Shown in pieces: positions 1,211 through 19,281 of a DNA stretch of 64,000 nt. The position numbers and the translations under genes were made by a program. The stretch covers positions 1 through 64,000 of the forward strand of contig CAVYRF010000002.1 in NCBI GenBank assembly GCA_963770895.1, read 5' to 3'. How positions within the stretch are numbered: the first letter of the stretch is position 1; the number at the start of each line of letters is the position of its first letter. Below the pieces are notes generated by a model that was not told the DNA's origin, did not search any database, and saw only the letters and a program-made list of their open reading frames with translations. This stretch comes from an uncultured Acidobacteriota bacterium. GTDB lineage: Bacteria; Acidobacteriota; Thermoanaerobaculia; Multivoradales; UBA5704.

Positions 1211-2155
1211 ATGACTCTTGATGAAGCCGTCACGATCTTTCTGTCACATTGTCGTTACGAAAAGAACCTCAGCCAGAAGACTCTGCGCGCCTACAACATC
1301 GACCTCCGCCAGCTGATGGACCACCTGCGCCTCCTCGACCCCACCCTCCCCTCCCTGCCCGATCTCGACAAAGCCCTCCTCCGCCGCTACATCCAAAGCC
1401 TCTTCGGCCGCAATGCCGACAAGACCATCAAGCGCAAAGTCGCCACCCTCAAGGTCTTCTTCCACTTCCTGGAGCGAGAAGACCTCATCGGCATCAACCC
1501 CTTCCGCAAAATGGACGTCCGCATCCGCGAAGCCCGCCGCCTCCCCCGCACCGTCCCCCTGGCCGACCTCCGAGCCCTCTTCCGCTACCTTTACGCCCAC
1601 AAGCGCACCCTCCAGCAGCCCGACACCCCCGCCTACCGCCGCGTCGTCCGCGACATCGCCGTCCTCGAGCTCCTCTTCGCCACCGGCGCCCGCGTCTCCG
1701 AAATCTGCACCCTCACCCAGCAAAACGTCGATCTCCGAGAAGGCTACGTCCGCATCTTGGGAAAAGGCGCAAGGGAGCGTATAATTCAGCTCTGCGATGA
1801 CGAAACTCTGGAGGCGCTAAGGGCTCACCAAGCCCTCGGCCCCTCCCCAGAAGGAGGCTACTTCTTCTCCAACGGCAGCACCGGCCGCCACCTCTCCGAC
1901 CAATCCGTCCGCACCATGCTCAAAACCACCGTCCGCCGAGCCGGCCTCCACCTCCACCTGACCCCCCACATGATCCGCCACACCATCGCCACCCTCCTCC
2001 TGGAAAGGGGCCTCGACATCCGCTACATCCAGCACCTCCTGGGCCACAGCTCCATCTCCACCACCCAGATCTACACCAGCGTAGAAGCCGGCCACCAACG
2101 CCGCCTCCTAACCGCCCACCACCCCCGCCGCCATCTGCTTCAAAACATCGCATGA
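1211..2155 (+). CDS. Tyrosine recombinase/integrase (XerC/D-like)
   Basis: GGAGGGG SD then ATG at 1211; SAM-like N-domain; catalytic R (TGARVSE), K (GKGARER), HxxR (HMIRH), LLGH and Y (TQIY) all present. Confidence 0.95.
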   Translation: MTLDEAVTIFLSHCRYEKNLSQKTLRAYNIDLRQLMDHLRLLDPTLPSLPDLDKALLRRYIQSLFGRNADKTIKRKVATLKVFFHFLEREDLIGINPFRKMDVRIREARRLPRTVPLADLRALFRYLYAHKRTLQQPDTPAYRRVVRDIAVLELLFATGARVSEICTLTQQNVDLREGYVRILGKGARERIIQLCDDETLEALRAHQALGPSPEGGYFFSNGSTGRHLSDQSVRTMLKTTVRRAGLHLHLTPHMIRHTIATLLLERGLDIRYIQHLLGHSSISTTQIYTSVEAGHQRRLLTAHHPRRHLLQNIA

Positions 2156-2445
2156 GCACCAACGTAGCGATAACTCGGAATTATCAAGCCTCGCACCTGG
2201 AGGGGCACGTGACGGACAGCGAACTCGGAGTGTGCGGAGAACCGCCTGGACTGACGCAGGTTGTCCTGGCATTTCTCAAGGCCAGATTCATGTGCCTTGG
2301 ACTGGTCCCAGATCTCCTCGGGAAAGTCGACAGCTCCAAGTCGCGGTGGAAGCCATGTTCCCAATCGCTCCATTCGCAGGGCGCATCCGACCTGTCGCAC
2401 CTTCGGGTTCATTTTCTCGGGTCGCTCAGCCAACCGCCTGACTAA
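2152..2445 (+). CDS. Small hypothetical ORF reading through the left repeat (ATG 2152 or GTG 2209)
   Basis: ATGA overlap with recombinase stop; in-frame GTG start MTDSEL with SD identical to the aminotransferase start; no recognisable domain. Confidence 0.3.
   Translation: MSTNVAITRNYQASHLEGHVTDSELGVCGEPPGLTQVVLAFLKARFMCLGLVPDLLGKVDSSKSRWKPCSQSLHSQGASDLSHLRVHFLGSLSQPPD
2169..2227 (+). repeat. Left inverted repeat / putative recombination site
   Basis: gataactcggaattatcaagcctcgcacctggaggggcacgtgacggacagcgaactcg equals reverse complement of 9741-9798 apart from one extra G; core GATAA-CTCGGAA-TTATC. Confidence 0.92.
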
Positions 2446-2471
2446 TCTCTACTTCAAAAAGGTGCTCGCGC

Positions 2472-5400
2472 ATGTCACACGTGCAAGTGAGTTGTGGAAC
2501 ATCGCCCAATTCACTGCGATGGAGGCTTGGGCAGTACGGCGGCCACGCCTTTGACGATCTTCTCTTCGACGTCCTTACCCGAGATCTCCAGCAGCAGGAT
2601 CCGAATATCCGAGTGCGACAGACTCCTCGCGTCGAGGATGGTGGCCGTGACGTCGAGATAGTGACCGACAAGATACTGAAGCTGGCTGGCGTCGTGATTC
2701 ATCCACCTGGCGCAGCCCCGCATAGGATCTTGGTCGAAGTGAAGACGATAACGTCGGGCTCCAAGCCACGGCTTCCATTTTCTGCGTTTGGCAAAAACTA
2801 CCACCAGCTTCGCGGGCTGGATTATTCCCACTTCGTTCTCGTCACGAATGCCTCGATCTCCCCGCGAACGGCGCGAGAGGTGTCACAGTCCTTCTCCGCA
2901 GCCGGGAAGCAATTCGTCCTTATCGACGAGTATCTCCTCTGGACCTTGCTTGATAAGCATGGCTTGGCAGGCCGATTACCAGAACGTTCGGAGTTGACTC
3001 CTACCGAGCTCGTGATCGAAACGCAGGTCAAGCGCACGGTGCAGGACGAAGCCGTGATCATCGACCTCGACCTGATGCTCCGCAACTACTCGAACATGCC
3101 GAGGCGCGTCACTGTCGAGAATCGCAGCGATGTGACCTGGCGGCAGACCATTCCCGAGGTGACCCGCACGATTGAGCCCGGCCGGTTCGAGACACTGCAC
3201 CTGATCGCCAAGAGCAGGAGACGCGAGACCGGCGATCTGGAGCTTCGCGTCCATGATCAGGATGGGGCGGAGTACCCTCTTCGCTTCGAAGCCCGTGACA
3301 TTGCCTTCGACTTTAAGCCGCCTCTCGTCGGAGAGCGACATCACCGCTGCCTCAACGAGCTGGTCGTCGCTCTCGGCGCAGACCTTCCGAGCCACCTTGT
3401 CAGCGTGGTCGGTGGAGCTGGACGAGGCAAAACACGCCTGATTGAAGAGGCTCTTGCCCGTACCGACAGGGCCACCCGCAAGGTCGTCCGTGCGGTGGTC
3501 GATCCTGATCGGTCGGAGCCAGCACTGGAAGCCGTGCTCAGCGGGATTCATGCCGCGCTCGGCGACACAGCTGCCCATCGAAACCTGAAGCCAGGCCGTC
3601 ACCCGTCCACGGCAGTCCGATTGCTCGAGGTGCTGACACAGCTCGACCATGCGTTCTACTCCGTCGTCATCTTGCTGGAAGACCTTCATCACGCAAGCCA
3701 CCCGGTCTTTACTCTCCTGCGCGACTTCCTGCGCATCGACCGCTCTGGGCAGTGTCCCTTGACTTTCGTCATTTCAGGACGCGATGACTACTCCTTCCCA
3801 AACGATGCATATTTCGCTCTCCTGGACGTGCTTGCCCACGCCGCGGCAGAGACGCCCGCCGTCGGGGAGTGTCGCGTAAGCACGATTCGCGTCCCTGATT
3901 TAACGCCCGAGGACTCTCGGCTTTTGATTCGCGCCATCGTGCGCGATGCACCAGCGTACGCCATGGATCGCCTCGAGGCCATTGGCGAGAATGTGCCTTT
4001 CTTCATTGTGCAGACCATAGAATATATGCTGGAAACAGGCATCGCCATTTTGTTGTCGCGCGAGAGCGTTGGCATTCCCAACCCGGCGGTGTTCGGTTCG
4101 CGAGCCGGCTTCCCAGCTGCAATGAAGTCTATTCTTACGGGCAGGTTGACGGCTCTCGACGCGCAGCCCGAAGGGCTCCGTCTGCGCCACTTTCTGGGAG
4201 TCTCTTGTTTTTTTGGCCAGCTGATACCCCAGGATATCGAGTTCGCGCTGATTGGAAACGTATCTGTTGATGAGGTCGAAGACCTGCTAATTGGCCGGCG
4301 ATTTCTCAAGCGCGGCGATGATGGATCGCTCCAGTGGTACCACGAGAACATCCTGCACCTCCTGCAAGAACTGGTACACGATGACGGCAGTGCGACGCTG
4401 CTGGCGCAGGAGATCGCCCTGACGCCGGCCCTGTTCAAGCACTTTACCGGCTGGCGTGCCGGCAGAATCCTGAGCGAGGCCGGGCTTCATCGTGCCGCAT
4501 TGCCGTATTTTACCACCATTAGCTCGCTTGCGGATGCAATGACCAACTTCAGCTCCGTTAACGTGGACCATACCTGCTTCGACTATTTATCGTGTACGTT
4601 CGATTCCGCAATAGCCTGTGGCGAGCAGCCGTCCCGGCTAATTCGTCTACTACTGCTACAGACGTATATCGCCGTGCACCACTACTCTGGACGGCATGGG
4701 CCCGAGACCGCAGCGCATGCCCTCTCGCGGCTGCCCCTCGTTCCGGCCGATGACGCGGAATTGCTCGAAGCGCGCGCCAAGCTCTTGCAACTGCGCGCGC
4801 ATGGGCTTATGGACATCGGTGAAATCGGCCGTGCAACCAAGCTGTTCTTGGAAATGGAGGGCTCGGTTAAACAGCCCGATTCGATCCTCAGGCAGCCAGA
4901 CCTGCTCTTCGATCTCTACAATCGCCTTCAAGACATCTATCGCATGCACAACCACCTAGCCGTCTGCGAACGGTACGGCGAGCTGGCCGGTCATGCGGCA
5001 CGTCAATCTGGAGGTGAGCTGCAGACTGTGGCGATGGGCGACAGTGCCATTGTTTACCACTACGTCGATACCCCGCGGTGTATCCGCCTTCACGAGGAGG
5101 CCCTTGCGTTTGCTCACCTCTTCGGCGCGAAGCGTCATGTCGCCCACATCGAGGTCGGCCTCATCGTGGCCAGCTTGAGCGACGCAGGAAGCAACGTCGA
5201 ACGCCTCAAAGATCTCATGGCCCGCGCGATCGAGCTTCTGCGCCAAGCGCTCGACAAGTCGTATGGGTCGCTTCTGGCACGCATCTACTTGCTACTGGCC
5301 ACGGTTGCGCATCTCCTCGCAGCGTACGGTGTCACGTCGAAGTCAGCGGTCGACAAGTACATCGAGCTCAGTCTTAATGCCGCAGTGATGTACCGGTCTG

Positions 5401-5825
5401 GCTACGACGCGTGGATGATCTACAACCTAAAGGCAATAGCAGCCTTGAGCGCCGGCCGGCCGATTAAGGAGGTAGGTGCCTACTTCGCTACGGCACTGCG
5501 CCTGCTGCGCCGTAGCGCTCTTCTCTTCCTCGGGAACCTCGACCTAACCTTCGAGAATATCATCGTTTTAAGCAACATCCTACGCTTCCTATCCGAACAC
5601 GGGACAGAGCGAGAGAAGTTCTCTATCGCACTTGAAATACGCCATTATGAAGACGTGGACGATGTTGCGCGAGGAGATCCGGAAGCCGACCTCTCTTGGG
5701 GGAAAGTCCGCTTCTCACAGCTTGAGCAAGATGTCCTCAACCATCGCATCATCGGGCAGACCGTTGTGCCAGACTCAGTGTTATTCGACAACGTGACTGG
5801 CTACGCTATTTGCGTTACTTGCTGA
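2472..5825 (+). CDS. Mrr-like PD-(D/E)XK nuclease - STAND/AAA NTPase - helical (TPR-like) repeat protein, Avs-like
   Basis: N-terminal QTPRVEDGGRDV...ILVEVK nuclease motif; Walker A GGAGRGKT; Walker B VILLEDLH; long alpha-helical C-terminus; 1117 aa. Confidence 0.8.
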   Translation: MSHVQVSCGTSPNSLRWRLGQYGGHAFDDLLFDVLTRDLQQQDPNIRVRQTPRVEDGGRDVEIVTDKILKLAGVVIHPPGAAPHRILVEVKTITSGSKPRLPFSAFGKNYHQLRGLDYSHFVLVTNASISPRTAREVSQSFSAAGKQFVLIDEYLLWTLLDKHGLAGRLPERSELTPTELVIETQVKRTVQDEAVIIDLDLMLRNYSNMPRRVTVENRSDVTWRQTIPEVTRTIEPGRFETLHLIAKSRRRETGDLELRVHDQDGAEYPLRFEARDIAFDFKPPLVGERHHRCLNELVVALGADLPSHLVSVVGGAGRGKTRLIEEALARTDRATRKVVRAVVDPDRSEPALEAVLSGIHAALGDTAAHRNLKPGRHPSTAVRLLEVLTQLDHAFYSVVILLEDLHHASHPVFTLLRDFLRIDRSGQCPLTFVISGRDDYSFPNDAYFALLDVLAHAAAETPAVGECRVSTIRVPDLTPEDSRLLIRAIVRDAPAYAMDRLEAIGENVPFFIVQTIEYMLETGIAILLSRESVGIPNPAVFGSRAGFPAAMKSILTGRLTALDAQPEGLRLRHFLGVSCFFGQLIPQDIEFALIGNVSVDEVEDLLIGRRFLKRGDDGSLQWYHENILHLLQELVHDDGSATLLAQEIALTPALFKHFTGWRAGRILSEAGLHRAALPYFTTISSLADAMTNFSSVNVDHTCFDYLSCTFDSAIACGEQPSRLIRLLLLQTYIAVHHYSGRHGPETAAHALSRLPLVPADDAELLEARAKLLQLRAHGLMDIGEIGRATKLFLEMEGSVKQPDSILRQPDLLFDLYNRLQDIYRMHNHLAVCERYGELAGHAARQSGGELQTVAMGDSAIVYHYVDTPRCIRLHEEALAFAHLFGAKRHVAHIEVGLIVASLSDAGSNVERLKDLMARAIELLRQALDKSYGSLLARIYLLLATVAHLLAAYGVTSKSAVDKYIELSLNAAVMYRSGYDAWMIYNLKAIAALSAGRPIKEVGAYFATALRLLRRSALLFLGNLDLTFENIIVLSNILRFLSEHGTEREKFSIALEIRHYEDVDDVARGDPEADLSWGKVRFSQLEQDVLNHRIIGQTVVPDSVLFDNVTGYAICVTC

Positions 5826-7608
5826 GCTCTGCCTGTCGCGTCTTCGTGATCAAGGCGCCCTCAATGACGAGCGCATCTAGCCCGCAGGACAGGAACGCGC
5901 GGATTGAATCTTCCGGCGTCTCCACCATTGGCTCTCCGGCCAAGTTGAACGATGTGTTCAGGAGCACCGCAAGACCAGTTCGCCGATGAAACGCGGCCAA
6001 CAGCGCCTGCAGAAATGGTTCCTGACTATCCACAGTCTGAACTCGTGCCGTACCGTCGATGTGGGTAATGGCCGGTAACAGCGCCTGATACGCTGCTCGG
6101 ACATCGCACGCGAAGAGCATGAATGGCGAGGGCTGGATAAGGTCAAAGATCTCTGCCGCATGCTCGGCGAGGACCATCGGAGCGTAGGGCCGAAACGCTT
6201 CACGGAACTTTACGTAGGCGTTCAAGTGGTCTTTCATAGAGGGAGATCGCGGATCTGCAAGGATCGAACGATGCCCCAAGGCCCTGGGGCCCAGTTCGCT
6301 GCGACCACGCAGCAGGCCGACGGTCCAGCCCTGCTCGATGAGGGCGGCGACCTCTTCGACCAGGACATGATCGTCGTGCCACTCGTATGCGAGCCCGTGC
6401 CGAGCGATCGCTGCCTCAATAGCGTGTCGGTCGTAGGAGAGTCCAGCATAGGGAAGAACGGGAGGGACGGCAGGCTCAGCCGGATGTAATGTGGGCCTAG
6501 GAGTCCGTCCCTTGAGCAATGCACTTACTGCAAACGCGGCCCCCACTGCGTGACCTTCGTCACCGCAGGCAGGCATGGCAAAGATCTCGCTGAAGAGCCC
6601 GGCCTTCAGGAGCTTGTGGTTCGCCACGCAGTTGAGGAAGACACCTCCAGATACACATAGCTTCGGCTCACCCAAGCGGTCACGGGTGTAGCGCGCAAGG
6701 CCGAGCAGCGCCTCTTCGGTGAACTTCTGAATCGTACTCGCCGCATCGGCGCGGTGCAGCCGAATGAACGCACCTATGGACATCGACTCAGTTTCGGCGA
6801 CGTTTTCGACTTCACGGATGATGTCGGCGAGGGTGAGCGAGTAACTGAAGTCGGTCACTGGCCACATGCGCGGATCTACTAGAGGCCTTCCATAGGACGC
6901 AAGGCCCATTGTCTTGCCGTTCTGTTCGTTGCCGAACCCTAAGAAGTAAGTGAACTGCTCGTACTTTCGACCGATACCAACGGTCTGTGTCGCGTAGCGG
7001 TCAGGCATCTGGGAAGCGCAGTAGAAGAACGGCCGGTCGTAGATGTCGTGCAGGAACGACTGCAAGCGACGATCGCACAGTTCCAGGGTGTCGCCATCGG
7101 CGAGGAACAGGCTCTCGCCCTCCATGCCCACGGCAAGGTCGGCCGCTCCTGGTGCCCCAACCGACTCCCTCCCAGGCGGCCCGACGAGATCGCCGGCGCC
7201 GTCACAGACTAGGATCGCGCAGCGCTGGAATCCGGAAAGTGCGCGTACACTCCAGGCGTGTGCGAGATGGTGCGTCACCGGAATACACGTGATGTCGGGA
7301 AGGTCAAAATAAACGCTCAGATCGTCTTCAAAACGACCGGCAAGCTTGTTGACCTCGCAGTTCTCGAAGCTAAATCCGACAGCGTCGACATCGTGAATCG
7401 TGCGGCCAACCTGAGCAAGGACAGCTGCGATGGCCTGGATCGGTATCTGGCAACCGGACGAGAACTTCACGCGGTCGAGCCGCTCCTGCGCGATGTGCCC
7501 GATTAGCCTGCCATTCTCCACCAGCGCCGCGCTGCGGTCGTGGCCTATATGGACGCCGAGCACTAAGCCAGAACCGCGGCATGTGACGATCGAAGGCGAG
7601 AGCTGCAT
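5815..7608 (-). CDS. O-carbamoyltransferase, NodU/CmcH/TobZ family
   Basis: GHDRSAALV, QERLDRVK, HHLAHA, DGAGD, GKTMGLASYG, SELGPRALGHRSILADPR, KFREAFRPYAP, NTSFN. Confidence 0.93.
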   Translation of the reverse strand: MQLSPSIVTCRGSGLVLGVHIGHDRSAALVENGRLIGHIAQERLDRVKFSSGCQIPIQAIAAVLAQVGRTIHDVDAVGFSFENCEVNKLAGRFEDDLSVYFDLPDITCIPVTHHLAHAWSVRALSGFQRCAILVCDGAGDLVGPPGRESVGAPGAADLAVGMEGESLFLADGDTLELCDRRLQSFLHDIYDRPFFYCASQMPDRYATQTVGIGRKYEQFTYFLGFGNEQNGKTMGLASYGRPLVDPRMWPVTDFSYSLTLADIIREVENVAETESMSIGAFIRLHRADAASTIQKFTEEALLGLARYTRDRLGEPKLCVSGGVFLNCVANHKLLKAGLFSEIFAMPACGDEGHAVGAAFAVSALLKGRTPRPTLHPAEPAVPPVLPYAGLSYDRHAIEAAIARHGLAYEWHDDHVLVEEVAALIEQGWTVGLLRGRSELGPRALGHRSILADPRSPSMKDHLNAYVKFREAFRPYAPMVLAEHAAEIFDLIQPSPFMLFACDVRAAYQALLPAITHIDGTARVQTVDSQEPFLQALLAAFHRRTGLAVLLNTSFNLAGEPMVETPEDSIRAFLSCGLDALVIEGALITKTRQAELSK

Positions 7609-7624
7609 GGGTCCTCGTTGTCTC

Positions 7625-8383
7625 TCAAATCGTCATGTTGGGGCCAGGATAGGCCCGATGATCGCAGCGAGAGCACACCGGTCCAGCCCTTCGCCTATCG
7701 CCGCGCATGAGATGCTGCCGGAGCTGCTCCATCGATGCGCTGCGCCAGATGTCCTCTAGACGAGAACGTCCCAGGTTGCCCAAGACGACCTCGCGACGCG
7801 CATCTTCATGGCAGAGAACTACGTCACCGTTGACAGTCACGATCAGCATCTCAGACGGCGCATGACAGGCCCGTCGCAGCGGCCTCTTGACACTGAGGAC
7901 GGCACCGGCGCGCCCGGACAGATCGAGATCACGAGGAAATTGCACAAGTTGATGGAGCCGACGTCGCATCGGCTCCCCGCCGTGGCGAGTTACGATGAAG
8001 AACTCGACACCCGCGTCGAGGAGGCTGGCATAGCGGGCGTCACTGAGAAGGTCCCCGTTGCTGTAGAGCACGAGATGTGCGAGCGGTAGCCAAGCGCGGG
8101 CGATTGCGATGAGGTCCTCGAGGTCCTTGCGGACTAGCGGCTCGTTGTAAAAATGAAACGACAATCGGCCGCTGAACTCGATCCCAGCAAGCTGAGCCAC
8201 GATACTGCGATATAGCTCTATTTCCATGAATAAGGATGACGACGTTGAGCCGAGCGTGCCGTTCGGGCAATAAGAACAGGTGCGGTTGCAGCGCACACCC
8301 ACTTCGATTTCGACGACGCTCGGCCAGGGAGCGGAGGGTGGACACGAATTCGTGCCATTTGAAAGTGAGGAGTTGGAAGCCAT
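7625..8383 (-). CDS. btrN: Radical SAM/Twitch dehydrogenase, BtrN-like (inosamine dehydrogenase)
   Basis: EIEVGVRCNRTCSYCP, GRLSFHFYNEPL, YSNGD, CHAPS..VTVNGDVVLCHED, C-terminal CSRC; about 250 aa, collinear with BtrN as recalled. Confidence 0.8.
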   Translation of the reverse strand: MASNSSLSNGTNSCPPSAPWPSVVEIEVGVRCNRTCSYCPNGTLGSTSSSLFMEIELYRSIVAQLAGIEFSGRLSFHFYNEPLVRKDLEDLIAIARAWLPLAHLVLYSNGDLLSDARYASLLDAGVEFFIVTRHGGEPMRRRLHQLVQFPRDLDLSGRAGAVLSVKRPLRRACHAPSEMLIVTVNGDVVLCHEDARREVVLGNLGRSRLEDIWRSASMEQLRQHLMRGDRRRAGPVCSRCDHRAYPGPNMTI

Positions 8384-9759
8384 TAGATCCCTTCGTGAAT
8401 TGTGAGCTCGCAGGCGCGGGCCTTTAGCGCTGGCGCATATGTGCGGACTTTGATGATGGCCTTGACGACGTCCTGCATATCGTCGGGAGCAGAAAGCAGC
8501 ATTTGATGAGGAAACGTCACGACCTCTGCGTAGGCCTGGGCGGCGCGAGGAAGTGCAAAGCGGCTAGGCTCCAACGCGTCGCGTACTTCCTGGTTGCGAG
8601 CAGCCATCGGTGCTTTAGTTGGTACATAAAGAGGATTTGCGTTCAGCGGCGCATCAATGCCACGGATGTCTACACTCAGCTCGGCCGCAAGAGCCGGAAC
8701 GATTTCGAGAGCCGAGAGGCCAGCGAAGACTGAGCGATTCACGCGCGCGGCTAATCTGTAGTAAGTGGGTCGGTTAACATCGGCACCTGGCACTATCAGT
8801 TCGATACCGTCGATGGATGCGATGCTAGCGGCGAGCGTGTCGACACAGGTCATCCGGTGGCCATTTTCCCGATCGAGTCGGCCGAGGCCCTCAAGCAGCA
8901 GCGCGGACTGAAACTCGGTGAGGCAAAGATTCTGTCCGGCCACTTCCCCGGCGGCCCTTAGCTCGTAACCGTCAGGCGCGATAGCGTGGCGTGCGCCAAT
9001 CGCTGGCAGTTGCTCTATGTCGAGGTTATTCGCCGGCGCACTAAAAGGGTCAGAACGATACTGCCTACCGTCGGCTCGAAGTTGCTGCAACTTCGCGTAG
9101 AGCGTGGGGTCGTCGGTAACGCATAGACCACCCTCACCGCTGGTAAGCAGCTTGCTCTGCTGAGTACTAAAGACGCTGATCGCGCCGAATGATCCTATTT
9201 GACTGCCGCGCCACGTTGCGCCGTGTGCCTGGGAGGCGTCTTCGATTAGCGTGACGCCTTGTCGTTGGGCCATGTCAAGGTATGCAGCGACATCACAGAT
9301 TGAGGAATACATGTGAATCATTAGAATGGCGCGCGTCTTTGGCGTGATCGCGCGTTCGATCGTAGAGGCCGATGCGCAAAGGCTCGCGGAATCAATGTCA
9401 ACGAAAATGGGACGCGCGCCAAGTCTGGTGATCGCGGCCGGAACTGCAACCCAGGTGAGGCCAGTCAGGATGACCTCATCTCCCGGACCGACGTCGAGTG
9501 CCTGTAGCGCGATTGAGAGGGCTGCTGATCCATGCGAGCAGGCGACGCAGTACTTTCGTCCAACATAGGCCGCGAATGCTCTGCTTATCCGCCGCTCGAA
9601 GGTGTCTGGAGCGTTGGACCAACCGCTGATAGCCCATTTCCCAGAGTGGAGAACCTCAAGTACGCAGCGTTGTGTAGCAGCAGTGGCTACAGGCCATTTA
9701 GGCCACGGCCGCTGGCGGACTGGATGGCCCCCAAACAACGCGAGTTCGCTGTCCGTCAC
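8383..9759 (-). CDS. btrR: DegT/StrS PLP aminotransferase, BtrR/NeoB-like inosose aminotransferase
   Basis: VLHSGKWAISG, FERR, GLTWVA, IEDASQAHG, FSTQQSKLLTSGEGG (PLP Lys), LRADGR; TAATG coupling to the radical SAM gene. Confidence 0.82.
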   Translation of the reverse strand: MTDSELALFGGHPVRQRPWPKWPVATAATQRCVLEVLHSGKWAISGWSNAPDTFERRISRAFAAYVGRKYCVACSHGSAALSIALQALDVGPGDEVILTGLTWVAVPAAITRLGARPIFVDIDSASLCASASTIERAITPKTRAILMIHMYSSICDVAAYLDMAQRQGVTLIEDASQAHGATWRGSQIGSFGAISVFSTQQSKLLTSGEGGLCVTDDPTLYAKLQQLRADGRQYRSDPFSAPANNLDIEQLPAIGARHAIAPDGYELRAAGEVAGQNLCLTEFQSALLLEGLGRLDRENGHRMTCVDTLAASIASIDGIELIVPGADVNRPTYYRLAARVNRSVFAGLSALEIVPALAAELSVDIRGIDAPLNANPLYVPTKAPMAARNQEVRDALEPSRFALPRAAQAYAEVVTFPHQMLLSAPDDMQDVVKAIIKVRTYAPALKARACELTIHEGI

Positions 9760-9798
9760 GTGCCCTCCAGGTGCGAGGCTTGATAATTCCGAGTTATC
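9741..9798 (-). repeat. Right inverted repeat / putative recombination site containing SD and start of the aminotransferase
   Basis: 58-bp inverted copy of 2169-2227. Confidence 0.92.
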
Positions 9799-9929
9799 CC
9801 ACTCACACGGGACGGGCCGCTGTTGCTCAACGAAATAATCCAGGTAATCACCGGGTGAGACTACGTCAGCTGGTGGTCGTGGAGGCAGGTGCTTTGCAGG
9901 AGCCAGATTCCACTCTCAAGGAGAACTTC

Positions 9930-11249
9930 ATGAACCGGCAGGGTGTCCACATTAAACCTTCGCAAGGAAAGTTAGGAGTTTTGTTGGTGGGACTGGGCGC
10001 AGTCTCCACTACCTTCATCGCAGGAGTCGAGGCTGTCAAAGCCGGGCTCGGAAAGCCGATCGGTTCGCTGACGCAGATGGGGACCGTCCGCCTCGGCGAG
10101 CACTCGGATGACCGGGCGCCTCGCATCGCCGACTTCGTACCCCTTGCACACCTTGAGGATCTGGTCTTCGGCGCCTGGGATATTTTTCCCGACGACGCCT
10201 ATGCTATCGCCTGTGGGGCCAAAGTCCTCGAGCGTGGGTTGCTTGACCGGCTTCGTCCCGAGTTGGAGGCTATCCGTCCCATGAAGGGGGTTTTCAACCC
10301 TCGCTACGTCAGACGCCTCAATGGCACCCACGTCAAGGAAAATTGTAATAAGTGGGAGCTAGCCGACATGCTAAAAAGTGATATCGAGGAGTTCCAGCGC
10401 CAGCGCGGGATTCAGAGGTCGGTGATGGTCTGGTGCGGCTCAACGGAAAGTTACTTGTGCGCCTCTGAGGTCCACCAGTCCCTCGACGATTTTGAGGCAG
10501 GACTGAGGAAAAGCGACGATGCGATCCCGTCAAGCATGATCTACGCTTATGCTGCCCTGTCACTAGGAATTCCTTTTGTCAACGGTGCGCCAAACTTGAC
10601 GTTGGACGTGCCGATCTTCCGCGAGCTGGCGAAGAAACAGCTGGTTCCGATCTGCGGCAAGGACCTAAAAACCGGTCAGTCGCTGATGAAGACCATCATC
10701 GCCCCTGGCCTCAAGGCCCGACTGCTCGGCCTCGAAGGCTGGTTCTCGACGAACATCTTGGGCAACCGTGACGGTGAGGTGCTGGACGACCCCGAGTGCT
10801 TTAGGACTAAAGAGCGCAGCAAACTCTCGGTTTTGGAGCATATCCTTGAGCGTCATCTGTACCCGGATCTCTATGGCGACTTCCATCACCAGGTCCAAAT
10901 CCACTACTACCCGCCACGGGGAGACAACAAAGAGGGATGGGACAACGTTGACATCTTCGGCTGGCTCGGCTATCCGATGCAGATTAAAATCGATTTCCTT
11001 TGCCGGGACAGCATTCTGGCTGCTCCGCTTGTGCTCGACCTTGTCCTCTTTCTTGACCTCTGCCACCGCGCTGGCATGCACGGCATACAGGAGTGGCTCT
11101 CGTTTTATTTCAAGAGCCCGATGACGCCTCCGGGCCTTCATCCGGAGCACGATCTTTTTGTCCAGCTCACGAAGCTTCAAAATACTTTACGGTTCCTGAG
11201 AGGCGAGGGACAGGTCACGCACCAAGAGCTTGATTACAAACCGGAGTGA
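9930..11249 (+). CDS. ino1: myo-inositol-1-phosphate synthase
   Basis: AAGGAG SD; GLGAVSTT, VWCGSTE, NGAPN, GKDLKTGQ, TNILGNRDG, GDNKEGWD, CRDSILAAPLVLDL. Confidence 0.93.
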   Translation: MNRQGVHIKPSQGKLGVLLVGLGAVSTTFIAGVEAVKAGLGKPIGSLTQMGTVRLGEHSDDRAPRIADFVPLAHLEDLVFGAWDIFPDDAYAIACGAKVLERGLLDRLRPELEAIRPMKGVFNPRYVRRLNGTHVKENCNKWELADMLKSDIEEFQRQRGIQRSVMVWCGSTESYLCASEVHQSLDDFEAGLRKSDDAIPSSMIYAYAALSLGIPFVNGAPNLTLDVPIFRELAKKQLVPICGKDLKTGQSLMKTIIAPGLKARLLGLEGWFSTNILGNRDGEVLDDPECFRTKERSKLSVLEHILERHLYPDLYGDFHHQVQIHYYPPRGDNKEGWDNVDIFGWLGYPMQIKIDFLCRDSILAAPLVLDLVLFLDLCHRAGMHGIQEWLSFYFKSPMTPPGLHPEHDLFVQLTKLQNTLRFLRGEGQVTHQELDYKPE

Positions 11250-11321
11250 ACGCCCTGCAGCAGCTGGTGAAGAACCTGACTTCGCATCCTGACACGCGAA
11301 TGGACAGGGCGCCGGCCCGGC

Positions 11322-15370: not shown

Positions 15371-18300
15371 TCAACGCCAGTCGCCGACCAGGACAAAGGC
15401 GGCCCAAAAGAAGGGATCGCTGTAGCGCCGGTCCTGGCGCAGCGATCGCTGCGCCGCACGCAACGCCGCCGCCGGCGGCAACCCCTGGGTGAAGAGCGCG
15501 CGATAGAAACGCGTCATCAGCGCCGCCGCCGCCCGGTCGTCGATGCGCCACAGAGTGGCCAGCACGCGCGCTGCGCCGGCGTACTGAAAACCGCGCGCCA
15601 GGCTGACCAGCCCCTCGCCGCGCGCTTCGCGGCCGAGCGCCGTGCGGCACCCCGACAGCACCACCAGGTCGGCCGAGAGGCGCAGGCTGTACACGTCGCG
15701 CAGATCCAGAAATCCCTGCTGTGGGCGGCCTTCGCGATCGACCAGCGACAGCGCCAGCCCCGACAGCGACGGATGATCGTTGTCCAGCACGCCGTGGGTG
15801 GCAAAATGCACCACCCGGTACCCATTCAATCGTTCCCCGAGCACCGCGGCGCGGCTGGCCGCAAAATCGAGCGCCACCGTCGCCTCTCCCGGCGGCGCCA
15901 GCGCCGCGATCGCTTCCGCCTCCTGCCGCGACGCCGGCAACCGTGCAAAAGCCGGCGCGCCGGCGCCGGCGGCCTGAGGCGGCGTGTCGGCCCAGGCGGC
16001 CGAACGGAATGGAACCGCGGGAGCCGGAGACGTCGGGCCTGTTGGAACCGCCACGCCGGGCGGGGGAACTGATCCGGGTAAGGCTGCCGCGCCGTCTGGG
16101 GCCTCCGGGCCGGGTGGGGCCGACGATCGTGCCGGGACTGCCGCTGAACGTGCGGGCACCGCGGCGGCCTGGCGTGCCGCCGGCACCGCCTGCGACACGC
16201 GCGGGTCGTCGGGCTCGAAAACCGGATCGGCAAAGACCGCGAGCCAACGCGCCGGCCGTTCCCGCCCGGCCAACAGCCGCCGCTCGACGGCCAACGTCGA
16301 CGCCGACGGCAGCATGACGACCTCGTGGCGTTCGAGCAGCGGCACCGGCGCGCCTGCGCTCTGCGTGCCCGGCGCACTCGCACTCCGCGGCGTTGGCGCG
16401 TCGCGACCGGCACCGGGCAGGGCCGCCGGCGACCCAGCGGGCTGGCCGCCGGACGCCGCTTCCGGCGCCGGGCCGCTCTGGCCTGCCACCGGTTCCGGCA
16501 GCGCGGCAAAGGGAACGTAGTCGAGCGCGCCGTCAGGCACGATGGCCAGGCGCCTGTCCCCCAGACGGCCGGCGACCGGCCCCAGCAGGATGCCGGACAA
16601 GGCGCCGGCGGTGGCGGCGGCGATTCGGCGCAGCGCGGGGTCGCCCGCGCTCCACTGCTGCTGGAGGGATCGCGCCAGCTCTTCGATGACGGCGCGCGGC
16701 GGCAGCTCGAAGCTCGCCACCATGTCGCTGCTGACCGCCCAGAGATAGCTGCGCGCCTCGCCCAGCGAGTAGGCGAGCAGGAGCGTGTCGCCGTCGAGCA
16801 GCGCCTGCATGCCGGCAGCGTCCAGCGGCTGCGGCCGGACCAGATCCGCGTAGGCGGGGCTGCGCTCGCGCAGCTCGGCTTCCACCAGGTCCAGCTCGCG
16901 CAGGATGTCCTGCTGCTCGTTCTCGCGCGCCGCCTTCTCGGCGGCTCCCACCGCCGGTTGGCGAGCCGCCCGTTCGGCCTTGGCGGCCAGCCGTTCGGCC
17001 AGCTCGATGCGGCGCGCCGCCAGGTCGGGAGCTTCGCCGGCAGGCACCGCAACCCCGGCGTCCGCGAGCACGTCGAGCAGCGTGCGGGCGCGGGCGCGCT
17101 CGTCGACCGCCAGCGCCTCCCGGTCGTGCCCGGCGCCCGGAGCGGCCCGATGGGCCTCCATCAGCAGCTCGATATCGAGCTCATACGCCTGGTGGGCAAC
17201 CGCCGAAAACGCCGTCCCCAGGTCCGGGTCGCCGATCCGCCGCCGCAGCGCCTCGAACGCGTCCAGTGCCTGTCCCGCATGCAGCAGCGCACTGTCGAGA
17301 GAGCCGCCCGCCGCCGCGGCGCCGAAGCGGTGTTCCGTGCTGGCCAGCTGGAACAGGACGCGTGCTTCGCCCGCCTGCATGCCCGCCTTGCGGAAGGCGG
17401 CCAGCGCCGCGTTCAGGTTGGCCAGCGCGCCCGGCCCATCGCCCAGGGCGGCGCGGGCCTCGCCCTGGCCGTGGAGGGCCTCGGCCCGATTGGGCAGGTC
17501 GCCCAGCGCCGCCAGCCGCTCGTCGGCCTGGGCGAAGCTGTCGCGGGCCGCGGTCGCGTCGCCCAGGTCCAGCTGTGTGCGGCCCAGCTGGGTGAGGGCG
17601 ATCCCCTCGCCGCGCCGGTCCTTGAGGACGCGCGCCAGGTCGAGCGCCTGCGCCAGGTGCGCCGCCGCCTGGCGCGGCTCGCCCAGGGTGCCGTCGATGG
17701 CGCCCAGATTGGTCAGGGTGGTCATCTCGCCGGCGCGGTCGCCCACCGCGCGCCACAGCGGCAGCGCCGCCTCGAAGCTGGCGCGGGCGCGCCGCGGTTC
17801 GCCGGTCGCCTGATAGACCAAGCCGATGTTGTTGACCACGCGCGCCTGCCACCTGCGGTCGGCCAGGTCGCGGAAGATCGCCAGCGCCGCGCCGTATTGC
17901 GCCAGCGCCTCCGCGATCTCGCCCAGCCCGGCGTCCAACACCCCGACGTTGTTGCGCACCCGCGCCTCGCTCTCGCGGTTGCCGGTCGAGCGCAACCGCT
18001 CCAGCGCCTGCCGGTAGCGGGCGCGCGCCGCCAGCGGCTCGCCGATCGCGTCGTAGGCGCGGCCGGCGCTGGTCAGCGCCGCGGCCAGCAGCTCTTCGGC
18101 TCGCACCTCCTCCAGCAGCGGCAGCGCGCCGTCGTAGCACGCGATCCCCGCTCGCAGGTCGCCGCGGCTGAGGTCCATCAGGCACAGGTTGCTGGCGGCC
18201 ACCGCCTCGCCGTAGCGGTCGCCGAGCGCCCGCGAGCGGCCCCGCGCGCGCTCGAACGCGGCGCGCGCCTGGTCGCCCTGGCCCAGCAGCCAGCTGTCCA

Positions 18301-19177
18301 GGCCGATCTCGTTGTCCGCCGCGGCGGCAAGGGAGCCGGCCCCCACCGCCTCCCACAGCGGCAGCGCTGCCCGCGCCAGCGCCAGCGCCACACCCGGCTC
18401 GTCCACCAACCGCGACACCACCGCCCGCTCGTACAGCGCCCGCACCTCCCCCTCCGCCGATCCCGCCTGCCGGAACAGCTCCTGCGCCTGGCCGTACAAC
18501 CCAAGAGCCTGCCGTCGCGCCACCGGCGTCGCCGCCGCGTACAGCCCCCCCGCCGCCGTCATCGCCGCCTCCGCGGCGGTACGGGTCGCCGCCGGCCGAG
18601 CGGTACCGACAGCGGTGCCAACGCCCACACCGGCCCCGGCGCCGGCTCCGGCCGCGACGCCGCTGCTGCCGGCCGCAGGGCCACTGGGGACGGCCTCGCT
18701 GCCGGCCGCACCGCCGCCGGGCGCTTCATCCCCTGCCGCCGTGCCGGCGGCCAGCGCCGCCATCTCCTCCAGGCGGATCCGGTAACGGCCTCGCGGCGGC
18801 GCGCCCGGCTCGCGCGCCCGCACCTCGATGCGGTATCGGCCGGCGACCCGCGGCGCCAGCAGCAGCGACTCGACGCCCTGCCGATCCAGCGGGCTGTCCA
18901 CCAGCGCCACCTGCCGGCCATCGGGGTCGATGGCCGCCACCGTGACATCGATGCCCAGCTGTTCGACCGTCACCAGCAGCGGCGGCCCCGCATCCGCCGC
19001 CTGGACGTCATAGGCATGCGCCTCGCCAGCCGCCATCTCCCGCACCAGCGGCAAGCCGACCCCAAGCCGCCCCAGAGGCACCGCAGGCGTCGGCGTGGAT
19101 AACGGCGGCGCAGCCCAAAGCGGCGCTGCAAGGGACCACGCGGCGACCCAGGCCAAGGCCGGCAATACGATTCTCAT
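15371..19177 (-). CDS. Secreted TPR-CHAT (caspase-like) protease
   Basis: Signal peptide MRIVLPALAW, PPC-like domain, many TPRs, VHFATHG and VVLSGCRT catalytic dyad, WAAFVLVG. Confidence 0.92.
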   Translation of the reverse strand: MRIVLPALAWVAAWSLAAPLWAAPPLSTPTPAVPLGRLGVGLPLVREMAAGEAHAYDVQAADAGPPLLVTVEQLGIDVTVAAIDPDGRQVALVDSPLDRQGVESLLLAPRVAGRYRIEVRAREPGAPPRGRYRIRLEEMAALAAGTAAGDEAPGGGAAGSEAVPSGPAAGSSGVAAGAGAGAGVGVGTAVGTARPAATRTAAEAAMTAAGGLYAAATPVARRQALGLYGQAQELFRQAGSAEGEVRALYERAVVSRLVDEPGVALALARAALPLWEAVGAGSLAAAADNEIGLDSWLLGQGDQARAAFERARGRSRALGDRYGEAVAASNLCLMDLSRGDLRAGIACYDGALPLLEEVRAEELLAAALTSAGRAYDAIGEPLAARARYRQALERLRSTGNRESEARVRNNVGVLDAGLGEIAEALAQYGAALAIFRDLADRRWQARVVNNIGLVYQATGEPRRARASFEAALPLWRAVGDRAGEMTTLTNLGAIDGTLGEPRQAAAHLAQALDLARVLKDRRGEGIALTQLGRTQLDLGDATAARDSFAQADERLAALGDLPNRAEALHGQGEARAALGDGPGALANLNAALAAFRKAGMQAGEARVLFQLASTEHRFGAAAAGGSLDSALLHAGQALDAFEALRRRIGDPDLGTAFSAVAHQAYELDIELLMEAHRAAPGAGHDREALAVDERARARTLLDVLADAGVAVPAGEAPDLAARRIELAERLAAKAERAARQPAVGAAEKAARENEQQDILRELDLVEAELRERSPAYADLVRPQPLDAAGMQALLDGDTLLLAYSLGEARSYLWAVSSDMVASFELPPRAVIEELARSLQQQWSAGDPALRRIAAATAGALSGILLGPVAGRLGDRRLAIVPDGALDYVPFAALPEPVAGQSGPAPEAASGGQPAGSPAALPGAGRDAPTPRSASAPGTQSAGAPVPLLERHEVVMLPSASTLAVERRLLAGRERPARWLAVFADPVFEPDDPRVSQAVPAARQAAAVPARSAAVPARSSAPPGPEAPDGAAALPGSVPPPGVAVPTGPTSPAPAVPFRSAAWADTPPQAAGAGAPAFARLPASRQEAEAIAALAPPGEATVALDFAASRAAVLGERLNGYRVVHFATHGVLDNDHPSLSGLALSLVDREGRPQQGFLDLRDVYSLRLSADLVVLSGCRTALGREARGEGLVSLARGFQYAGAARVLATLWRIDDRAAAALMTRFYRALFTQGLPPAAALRAAQRSLRQDRRYSDPFFWAAFVLVGDWR

Positions 19178-19281
19178 CTTCGGTCGCAGAACACTACCAC
19201 CACCGCCGGCCGGCCGAGCGCTCGGCGGCAGCTGGCGATGCTCGCCCGATTGCGCCATGATCTCGGTAACCGAGGACATCG

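Follow-up and report, generated by a model that had tools for sequence, protein, structure and literature searches.

Avs proteins of the Avs3 and Avs4 types place an N-terminal nuclease ahead of a STAND NTPase and a C-terminal helical-repeat sensor, and Avs proteins act as single genes. MalT, another STAND protein, has its state set by a small carbohydrate, maltotriose, and STAND regulators beside pathway genes are common. Here we describe a locus of an uncultured Acidobacteriota bacterium (assembly GCA_963770895.1) in which a STAND protein with a predicted N-terminal Mrr-type nuclease is encoded convergently with a TobZ/NodU/CmcH-type carbamoyltransferase (CT), the latter joined by a BtrN-like radical-SAM dehydrogenase (rSAM) and a DegT-family aminotransferase (AT). 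The stretch analysed, called the window below, is the first 64 kb of the 5.83-Mb contig CAVYRF010000002.1, from a genome of 8.16 Mb with 71% GC. The unit is a 7.6-kb cassette that runs from one inverted recombination site to the other (2169-9798) next to a gene for an Xer-like tyrosine recombinase (INT), and a gene for a long-type myo-inositol-1-phosphate synthase (MIPS) lies beyond the right-hand site. We consider it very likely that STAND and CT are a conserved, functionally coupled unit on a site-specific cassette platform, and we put the probability that the whole is a mobile two-armed immune cassette, leaving aside the ligand-gating step proposed below, at roughly one half.

The cassette STAND protein shares with Avs3 and Avs4 the order of nuclease, NTPase and helical-repeat sensor, but differs from them in a beta-sandwich between nuclease and NTPase, in its CT partner (32 of 32 loci) and in having no match among the Avs models of PADLOC. 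MalT is the best solved sequence match to its NTPase and the basis of the gating analogy proposed below; the output of MalT is DNA binding, whereas that of the cassette protein would be nucleolytic. On the enzyme side, rSAM and AT match the butirosin/2-deoxystreptamine enzymes BtrN and BtrS/BtrR and CT matches TobZ-type O-carbamoyltransferases, except that MIPS takes the place of 2-deoxy-scyllo-inosose synthase and that the cassette includes an immune-type protein. A phage carbamoyltransferase with the same Pfam pair as CT (PF02543 and PF16861), from a setting of phage-host conflict such as that proposed for the cassette, converts 5-hydroxymethyldeoxycytidine (5hmdC) in single-stranded and double-stranded DNA, as well as 5hmdCTP, to 5-carbamoyloxymethyl-deoxycytidine, according to PMC8670742. 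The enzyme is phage-encoded, lies beside dCMP hydroxymethylase-type genes and acts on DNA and dNTPs, whereas the cassette CT is encoded by a host or element, adjoins STAND and, in the clade of the window, follows cyclitol enzymes.

With respect to mobility, the closest counterparts are the pdif modules of Acinetobacter plasmids, which PMC6449649 describes as flanked by inverted Xer-type sites with a palindromic conserved inner part and variable centre and outer parts, in varied contexts. The cassettes resemble them as discrete modules between inverted Xer-type sites in different contexts, and their sites likewise have a palindromic inner part that is conserved and a centre and outer parts that vary. 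They appear to differ in a 17-bp core with a 7-nt centre instead of the 11-6-11 (28-bp) dif layout; they differ further in an Xer-like recombinase of their own that is usually adjacent (23 of 32 loci), in two convergent promoterless arms and in an occurrence across about ten phyla, and they are known here from sequences alone. Invertons and shufflons, such as the fim switch and the hsdS invertons, also combine inverted repeats with an adjacent tyrosine recombinase and both orientations among related loci; in the cassettes, however, multi-gene segments of 5-8.7 kb lie between the repeats, not promoter or gene segments, and orientations were compared between loci, not within one population. Integrons use an IntI-type recombinase and direct attC sites, unlike the short inverted palindromic cores found here, and INT scored 85 bits with the integron-integrase model, under its cut-off of 265. 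No STAND-carbamoyltransferase system and no such site or cassette platform was found described in full-text literature searches (supplements not covered) or in PADLOC-DB 2.0. In a survey of STAND proteins (10.64898/2026.01.04.697583), the words transferase, recombinase and ATP-grasp are absent from the main text, supplements not covered.

Conserved pairing of STAND and carbamoyltransferase genes

In the window, the STAND and CT genes overlap tail to tail by 11 bp (5815-5825), an overlap that is real given the coordinates of the two open reading frames (ORFs), 2472-5825 on the plus strand and 5815-7608 on the minus strand. GC content is 0.57-0.62 over about 2000-11250 and 0.64-0.78 in the flanks. 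At third codon positions (GC3) it is 0.61-0.69 for STAND, CT, rSAM, AT and MIPS, against 0.83 for the INT core and 0.84-0.88 for host genes. An earlier reading of this DNA from its sequence alone (the sequence-only reading) had noted both the overlap and the shared composition, each of which we confirmed, and had judged that the nuclease-STAND and CT genes appear to travel together, which the comparison of loci bears out. Its extent for the system, 2472-11249, gave way to the site-to-site interval with MIPS outside, and it had described neither the inverted sites on either side nor the Xer-like recombinase next to them, nor that the locus is a cassette.

We compared the window with 31 further family loci (L001; L011-L015; L035-L043; L044-L052; L071, L075, L076 and L078; L157-L158; L177). 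L044-L052 are the nine full-length members among 26 loci returned by one search, and L071, L075, L076 and L078 were new from a CT-based scan, whose matches L072-L074 lay on contigs already sampled; L157 and L158 are viral contigs, and L177 is plasmid pSD25 of Ruegeria sp. PR1b. A convergent CT gene follows STAND directly in all 32 loci, which come from about ten phyla; the CTs are 37-74% identical to that of the window, and the lowest STAND identity to the window protein is 23%. The ends of the two ORFs overlap in 18 of 25 tabulated loci. The sequence-only reading had proposed a neighbourhood search for co-occurrence of the four genes; no STAND homologue lacking CT was seen among the 32 family loci.

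The pairing also holds in the reverse direction. Among 80 CT loci, seven of the eight with CTs of the cassette clade (at least 349 bits to the window CT) adjoin STAND, and the eighth is a 2.1-kb contig beginning at a site. As controls, 72 CT loci scoring at most 311 bits contained no STAND-family gene, no site motif and no related recombinase, and 17 loci matching the NTPase domain only (unrelated STANDs) contained no CT and no motif. Pairwise identities of STAND and CT across 28 loci were correlated with a Mantel r of 0.90, a value reached by none of 2,000 permutations, and the Spearman coefficient was 0.72 among pairs below 50% identity.

According to record titles, the carriers comprise, within Acidobacteriota, an uncultured Acidobacteriota metagenome-assembled genome (MAG), Pyrinomonadaceae and Thermoanaerobaculia; the others are Melioribacteraceae, Ignavibacteriales, Croceimicrobium, Muribaculaceae, Bacteroidaceae, Polaromonas, Ruegeria, Caldithrix, Lachnospiraceae, Oscillospiraceae, Treponema, Chitinispirillales, Rubrobacter and Maridesulfovibrio. 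The Ruegeria copy resides on the conjugative plasmid of a cultured strain (pSD25, NC_004574.1 21652-35097), where site-flanked STAND and CT genes adjoin a tyrosine recombinase. An IS21-family element interrupts its STAND gene, the neighbourhood includes an IS5-like element and a second integrase, and RefSeq labels the products 'ATP-binding protein', 'hypothetical protein' and 'carbamoyltransferase C-terminal domain-containing protein'. This copy was the one plasmid match of the distant STAND member P0074, which had none in phages; tblastn of the window STAND against plasmids gave no match. The genomes of 40 relatives held no cassette, only MIPS homologues and weak matches, and a 400-genome sample of the window's phylum yielded only NTPase-domain matches to other STANDs. 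Across 1.84 billion representatives, an HMMER scan returned 179 STAND matches at E<=1e-3, 116 of them at <=1e-30; most of the 150 matches listed are 1040-1220 aa long, and the close family comprises 41 proteins at no less than 67% identity.

Conservation was examined in 42 STAND family members that are 22-74% identical to the window protein. Residues D56, G58, D60 and K91 are invariant and E89 is present in at least 90% of members, so that D60, E89 and K91 are the predicted PD-(D/E)xK triad; Walker A residues G314, G317, G319 and K320 and Walker B D404 are invariant as well. A member-by-member scan recognised Mrr_cat in 16 of the 42 proteins (best E 1e-7) and NB-ARC in 21, and the window STAND itself had no direct Pfam nuclease match. 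The family matches agree with the Mrr-like N-terminus proposed in the sequence-only reading. An AlphaFold model built on the 42-sequence alignment had a mean pLDDT of 86.9. Foldseek against the PDB ranked the STAND-TPR protein 6mfv first (9e-11) and terminase-bound Avs3 (8dgc) second (1e-10), followed by SAMD9, MalT, Apaf-1 and Avs4 (8dgf), with low TM-scores, as a multi-domain chain would lead one to expect. In profile comparison with solved structures, the best matches were MalT (8bob, E 3e-5) and plant NRC-type NLRs. Sequence and model together support a Mrr-nuclease STAND that is Avs-like in design; membership of a curated Avs family is not supported.

Among other STAND members, P0113, P0116, P0127, P0128, P0132, P0133, P0136 and P0151 (1147-1222 aa) align with the window protein only from about residue 270 and would therefore carry a different N-terminal effector domain. 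The homologue in the Acidobacteriota MAG (L001, 10001-13347) is spread over four frames, with tblastn recovering it in four pieces and its ORFs measuring 150-359 aa, and is either a pseudogene or the product of assembly indel errors. A C-terminal cysteine of STAND was considered as a HypE-like carbamoyl acceptor and dropped, as the terminal Cys is kept only in the close subfamily and not in the sub-family alignments A3 and A4.

CT combines a Kae1-like N domain with a YrdC-like C domain, and its His/Asp motifs are invariant in 20 sequences. Profile comparison with solved structures returned GdmN, another carbamoyltransferase, NovN and TobZ (E 1e-105 to 1e-86). Its score of 177.7 bits with the NodU model NF041651 is far from the cut-off of 1000, so CT is not a NodU proper. 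No family of PADLOC-DB 2.0 matches STAND or CT at E<=0.01, in line with the sequence-only reading, which knew of no described system with this gene set.

Inverted sites, the recombinase and cassette exchange

A 58-nt inverted repeat with one indel encloses the four genes of the window cassette (Table 1). When the ends were aligned across loci, the common element was a 17-bp core, GATAAY-N5-RTTATC, i.e. GATAA-N7-TTATC, and the outer arms were not conserved. A regular-expression search with GATAA-N7-TTATC over the 8.16-Mb genome gave exactly two matches, which are the two cassette ends. An inverted pair with complementary spacers encloses STAND through CT (or through AT) in 25 of 31 loci by script, and additionally in L177 (26 of 32). 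By eye, L078 has a degenerate site pair and contig L046 starts and stops inside both sites; the pair is cut by contig ends in L012, L043 and L076, and the right-hand site of L044 has a different spacer. Spacers differ between cassettes of one genome and are identical at both ends of each cassette. Tyrosine recombinases need spacer identity between recombining sites, and the matched spacers would therefore allow only the two ends of the same cassette to recombine with each other.

The median distance between a site and the aligned start of either arm is about 20 nt (about 20-30 nt for the STAND start in loci other than the window), and in several loci this gap shows only a ribosome-binding site (RBS). 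The largest gap is that on the left side of the window cassette (286 nt), which consists of a 42-nt copy of the beginning of AT and 243 nt without homologue. For 2186-2471, blastn and tblastx against the fetched loci and the rest of the genome found no homologue beyond the 42-nt duplicate, and no Pfam family was detected; a 97-aa ORF across the filler (2152-2445) is probably spurious. This gap with its AT copy is the scar of an earlier rearrangement. No third site was found beyond MIPS, no terminator was predicted at the STAND/CT junction, and a promoter scan did not differ from shuffled sequences (3 found against 2.9 expected). Two-gene cassettes measure 4960-5285 bp, and two cassettes of about 6.1 kb hold an extra unannotated ORF between STAND and CT (L048 5243-5848, plus strand, 201 aa; L052 11349-12434, minus strand, 361 aa).

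The INT gene of the window ends 14 nt before the left site, and its GC3 is host-like. Its best NCBIfam matches are XerC (224 bits) and XerD (212 bits), both under cut-off. The listed ORF of 518 aa is probably too long, and the start is uncertain: some 200 codons at its beginning form a Pro/Ala-rich stretch that runs across an ABC ATPase ORF on the opposite strand (43-921). This Pro/Ala-rich 5' extension also contains a perfect 37-nt tandem duplication (961-1034). Across the family, a tyrosine recombinase was present in the fetched DNA of 23 of 32 loci; of the 22 scored, 20 have it at most 700 nt from the cassette. The arm next to it in these 20 loci was the enzyme arm in 13 and the STAND arm in seven: in 15 loci the recombinase was co-directional and upstream (ten facing the enzyme arm, five the STAND arm), and in five it was divergent (three and two, respectively). 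At least two clades can be distinguished among the cassette recombinases, with 30-37% identity between them.

Comparison of related loci shows that cassettes are exchanged and occur in opposite orientations. L157 and L158, from two samples, have a common 6.3-kb flank (93.7% identity), which in both breaks off where an identical site has its inner edge. Their cassettes can be aligned over 782 nt only, at 65% identity, and the arm turned towards the flank is that of CT in L157 and that of STAND in L158. Contig L157 opens with 69 nt that are an inverted copy of the same flank and site. L001 and L014 have collinear cassettes (85% identity), and a homologous flank composed of INT and a neighbour gene (65-72%) is found at the AT end of one cassette and, in mirror image, at the STAND end of the other. 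Homologous INT genes also lie on opposite sides of the cassettes of L012 and L013. Contigs L038, L046, L011, L014 and L070 stop exactly at sites, as does the end of G435:C5, and six Logan contigs with close homologues are 7.46-7.81 kb long, approximately the size of the cassette.

Additional repeats were observed around the sites. L045 (1539 and 1641) and L044 (7855 and 7957) each have, about 100 nt beyond the site of the cassette itself, another core site whose spacer differs, which hints at adjoining cassette arrays or remnants of exchanged cassettes. A conserved element of about 70 nt occurs in inverted copies just outside the core site in L012 (61-111 and 1543-1594) and L014 (9904-9972 and 17391-17459); it stands on both sides of the cassette in L014, as an 86-nt perfect inverted repeat, and on both sides of the recombinase gene in L012. 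This element may be an accessory recombinase-binding or promoter region.

Table 1. Features in and beside the window cassette and of other cassettes with the same type of site
Locus	Feature	Position	Strand	Details
Window	Xer-like tyrosine recombinase (INT)	1211..2155	+	Phage_integrase E 1.8e-37, Phage_int_SAM_1; ORF listed as 599-2155
Window	Left inverted-repeat arm	2169..2227		17-bp core GATAACTCGGAATTATC at 2169-2185; 2186-2227 copies AT RBS, start codon and first 6 codons
Window	Filler between left arm and STAND start	2228..2471		243 nt
Window	STAND NTPase with putative N-terminal Mrr-type PD-(D/E)xK nuclease	2472..5825	+	1117 aa; Pfam AAA_22/AAA_16
Window	STAND, predicted nuclease domain	aa 1-165 (2472-2966)	+	D60, E89, K91; alpha/beta in model
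Window	STAND, beta-sandwich	aa 180-272 (3009-3287)	+	Predicted structure
Window	STAND, NTPase	aa 288-~520 (3333-4031)	+	Walker A G314-T321, Walker B D404
Window	STAND, helical-repeat sensor	aa 660-1091 (4449-5744)	+	Predicted structure
Window	TobZ/NodU/CmcH-type carbamoyltransferase (CT)	5815..7608	-	597 aa; Carbam_trans_C (PF16861) E 2.5e-63, Carbam_trans_N (PF02543) E 6.9e-29
Window	BtrN-like radical-SAM dehydrogenase (rSAM)	7625..8383	-	252 aa; Radical_SAM, SPASM
Window	DegT-family aminotransferase (AT), inosose/2-deoxy-scyllo-inosose type	8383..9759	-	458 aa; DegT_DnrJ_EryC1 E 1.3e-74; first gene of enzyme arm
Window	Right inverted-repeat arm	9741..9798		Core GATAATTCCGAGTTATC at 9782-9798, reverse complement of left, same spacer
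Window	Long-type myo-inositol-1-phosphate synthase (MIPS)	9930..11249	+	~439 aa; NAD_binding_5 E 4.5e-96, Inos-1-P_synth E 1.4e-29; ORF listed as 9771-11249
L150	STAND (AAA_16+TPR, 798 aa) and ATP-grasp	G435:C24 93-3505		No INT in fetched stretch
L151	Class I/II aminotransferase and pentapeptide-repeat protein			INT adjoining
L152	ATP-grasp and 760-aa protein without Pfam family	G436:C55 3304-6553		INT adjoining
Relative with INT-orthologue cassette	GT2 glycosyltransferase and DegT aminotransferase versus 1221-aa STAND
L171	Membrane protein versus UbiA prenyltransferase
L172	PLP-decarboxylase and ATP-grasp versus 826-aa STAND-TPR	G003:C3 3723-9858		IS256-type transposase inserted
L173	TIR-domain protein convergent with SAM-methyltransferase	G015:C3 10857-12749		1.9-kb cassette
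L174, L176	Unannotated pairs			360+190 aa and 366+197 aa

The enzyme arm and a candidate role in conflict

The sequence-only reading had regarded the additional enzymes as aminocyclitol-type, and their closest relatives uphold this. The best solved relative of rSAM is BtrN (4m7t, E 4.9e-44, residues 22-242), with the next matches at E>1e-3; rSAM carries CxxxCxxC at residues 32-39 (C32/C36/C39) and the C-terminal cysteines C173, C191, C237 and C240, so that clusters and full-length similarity identify a putative BtrN-type enzyme. AT is closest to the L-glutamine:2-deoxy-scyllo-inosose aminotransferases 5w70, 5w71 and 2c7t (E 1.2e-86, 1.7e-77 and 6.5e-77), and sugar-nucleotide aminotransferases rank below (<=1e-46). 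MIPS likely starts at the ATG at 9930, not at the listed 9771, and then lies 132 nt outside the right site, divergent from AT. It is the only MIPS of the genome and its GC3 of 0.69 is cassette-like; its closest homologues belong to the same bacterial family, share 72-78% protein identity with it and have a GC3 of 0.90-0.97. From this composition, MIPS was likely transferred together with the cassette and would supply the enzyme arm.

Only seven of the 32 loci (the window, L001 and L011-L015) contain rSAM and AT. A fifth gene between CT and rSAM, a short-type MIPS (Inos-1-P_synth E 2e-34 and 1e-33), was found in L011 and L015, the two of 32 loci with a cassette-internal MIPS. The four-gene block of the window (2471-9764) is 70% nucleotide-identical to that of an Acidobacteriota MAG. 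With these counts, the aminocyclitol set is not part of the conserved system: it is a clade-specific add-on to a core of STAND and CT. Of the four-gene system suggested in the sequence-only reading, the STAND and CT core thus stood, and rSAM and AT turned out to be confined to the seven loci. Drawing on established butirosin and streptomycin-type chemistry, we infer a route from glucose-6-phosphate to inositol phosphate and inositol, which would then undergo radical-SAM oxidation and transamination, once or twice, with carbamoylation as the last step. The window cassette contains no glycosyltransferase, exporter or resistance gene, and the expected product is therefore a bare carbamoylated aminocyclitol, not an aminoglycoside.

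We propose that the cassette has two arms forming one unit, most likely an antiphage or anti-mobile-element module. The first arm would be an Avs-like sensor-effector comprising an Mrr-type nuclease, a STAND ATPase switch and a helical-repeat sensor; once activated, STAND may oligomerise and its nuclease cut DNA, leading to abortive infection. The second would be an enzyme line ending in a TobZ-type O-carbamoyltransferase, to which the clade of the window adds rSAM and AT upstream, fed by MIPS, and which may convert glucose-6-phosphate via inositol to a carbamoylated scyllo-inosamine or streptamine-type aminocyclitol. A carbamoylated small molecule may control the STAND switch in the way that maltotriose controls MalT: it could signal that 'self is healthy', in which case losing it would arm the nuclease, or it could itself activate the protein. 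The recombinase would invert the cassette between like-spacered sites, and cassettes would be exchanged between genomes at the sites. Since the arms start about 20 nt inside the sites and leave no room for a promoter, inversion could choose the expressed arm, namely the one read from a promoter on the recombinase side.

These elements differ in their standing. Immune function, the product of the enzyme arm, the coupling of the arms and the promoter logic are our interpretation of the gene content and layout. A role in conflict or antiphage defence is somewhat favoured, and ligand-gating, argued by analogy with MalT, is the coupling between the arms that we prefer, although we hold it to be less likely than not. 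Slightly more speculative is the joint proposal that Xer-like recombinases and heterospecific GATAA-N7-TTATC sites constitute a platform, widespread in bacteria, that stores, flips and swaps modules of a sensor or death protein and metabolite enzymes, with inverted like-spacered sites acting as a natural device for cassette exchange and phase switching and an enzyme-made molecule, in the window a carbamoylated aminocyclitol, guarding or firing STAND.

The genomic surroundings are suggestive of defence. L001 is flanked by a CBASS-type SAVED nuclease, an M78 peptidase, HamA with a helicase (Hachiman) and a UvrD-type helicase, and L158 by three serine recombinases and by HerA with SIR2. When 112 ORFs flanking the cassettes of 22 loci were scanned with PADLOC (E<=1e-10), HerA and SIR2 were recovered twice each, and Dsr2, GajB, HamB, HEC-01A and the MADS components mad3 and mad8 as well.

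Several points weigh against the reading as a mobile two-armed immune cassette. Defence genes are frequent beside the cassettes, but this is a count without a background rate, and as no PADLOC model matches STAND or CT, membership of a validated defence family is not established. The Mantel result shows that the two genes are inherited together and do not swap partners, but linkage by itself would favour the same pattern, and any two tightly linked genes should co-diverge. A convergent, overlapping layout is as compatible with mutually exclusive expression as with co-operation. The family loci came from a homology search and many are MAG or metagenome contigs of related samples, so the counts are not independent. 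In L041, L050, L071, L157 and L158, ten recombinase queries found no tyrosine recombinase in the fetched DNA despite long flanks. The sequencing runs that hold parts of the window are four low-depth soil runs whose short contigs give no junction information. Finally, 25 of 32 cassettes carry CT only, and an aminocyclitol therefore cannot be the general ligand.

The same 25 CT-only cassettes would be accounted for by a modify-and-cut pair, close to a hypothesis of the sequence-only reading, in which CT carbamoylates a nucleic-acid hydroxyl, for example in 5-hydroxymethyl-pyrimidines of phage DNA or dNTPs, and the nuclease domain, which as an Mrr-type enzyme would depend on modification, reads the mark. 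Such a pair has further arguments in the presence of Mrr_cat in family members and in the convergent, often overlapping layout (18 of 25 loci), which resembles a restriction-modification pair. Carbamoyltransferases that modify phage DNA bases do exist, as that earlier reading had stated: PMC8670742 describes one with the same Pfam pair acting on 5hmdC. The bioRxiv paper 10.64898/2026.02.25.707755 offers a precedent in BapA with Brig3, a host base-editing enzyme widening a DNA-targeting defence. We nevertheless regard this account as unlikely: rSAM and AT in seven and MIPS in two of the 32 CT arms point to a cyclitol acceptor, the closest solved CTs use small molecules, and neither the STAND switch nor the helical-repeat sensor would have a role. 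Equally unlikely in our judgement is a flip-flop of independent arms, in which expression is confined to the promoter-facing arm while antisense read-through silences the other. Cells would alternate between an 'enzyme' state that yields a metabolite or an envelope modification and a 'STAND' state geared to abortive infection, and the two would have no biochemical link. This account draws on the distance from site to arm start (median ~20 nt), too short to accommodate internal promoters, on an INT that is co-directional and immediately upstream in 15 of 20 loci, on overlapping 3' ends with no predicted terminator, on the matched spacers that permit inversion, and on the recurrence of the convergent two-arm design with unrelated cargo. 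The two-way exclusive pairing of STAND family and CT clade and their co-divergence are hard to explain in this way without functional coupling, and INT is divergent in five loci.

A little less probable still is a mobile biosynthetic or detoxifying set with no immune role, whose STAND protein acts as a regulator that senses a metabolite, as MalT and AfsR do, and whose nuclease-like domain only binds DNA. Enzymes typical of aminoglycoside pathways and the rank of MalT as best solved-structure sequence match (E 3e-5) are in keeping with it, but the nuclease residues are kept down to 22% identity (D60 and K91 invariant, E89 in at least 90% of 42 members), 25 of 32 cassettes have a single enzyme and no pathway, several known defence systems are neighbours, and Foldseek ranks Avs3 second. 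The palindromic sites, which we had considered as operators of the nuclease-like domain, were dropped from that role and are excluded as operators of such a regulator, because they also flank cassettes without a STAND of this family. That the genes have no functional link and are merely co-mobilised cargo of one island is very improbable. The genes are all low in GC and lie on one acquired segment, and platform cargo is varied; against this, co-occurrence is reciprocal (32 of 32 and seven of eight, in about ten phyla, compared with 0 of 17 and 0 of 72 in the controls) and the overlapping layout is conserved.

If the pair proves to have an immune role, it would represent a STAND/NLR-like receptor dependent on a partner small-molecule enzyme, and aminoglycoside-type chemistry would be tied to innate immunity, not antibiosis. 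Should the platform proposal with its gating step be true, an enzyme-made small molecule as STAND ligand would represent a new principle of NLR-like immunity. The two-gene cassettes of about 5 kb and the plasmid copy in a cultured Ruegeria, in which STAND is interrupted, make the system testable.

Other cargo of the site platform and neighbouring genes

Whatever its function, the platform is marked by a 17-bp core whose conservation extends from Bacillota to Acidobacteriota, and it apparently exchanges and inverts whole modules. It is a candidate natural cassette-exchange system in which differing spacers may prevent recombination between cassettes, and inverted site pairs with matched spacers are a simple handle for mining further cargo. 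Five whole genomes that hold cassettes contained 1-7 site matches each, compared with 0-1 for a reversed-pattern control. The further inverted pairs with matched spacers each enclose two convergent genes that begin at the sites (Table 1).

Orthologues of the window INT (58-78% identity) were present in nine of 24 relatives from the same family. In seven of seven relatives fetched, the orthologue adjoins a low-GC stretch that starts at such a site; the inverted pair is complete in six, and the contig of the seventh ends. Between the window and the INT loci of these relatives, only the INT gene is conserved. A Pfam scan of the relatives' cargo covered ten proteins from four loci, L174 and L176 not included, and the ATP-grasp protein of L172 was assigned by BLAST to those of L150 and L152. 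The recurrent design of the platform is a sensor or death protein set against one or more enzymes.

A second recurrent pairing was observed in L150, L152 and L172, from three distant lineages, in which a STAND/AAA_16-TPR protein (or the 760-aa protein) is convergent with a D-Ala-D-Ala-ligase-like ATP-grasp.

No tRNA gene was found in the 64-kb window, and no synteny was found between the window flanks and the relatives' MIPS or INT loci. Four kilobases to the right of the island, a gene with host-like GC (15371-19279, minus strand) encodes a 1302-aa TPR and CHAT (caspase-like protease) protein. It is separated from the island by an MFS transporter gene followed by an ECF sigma/anti-sigma pair.

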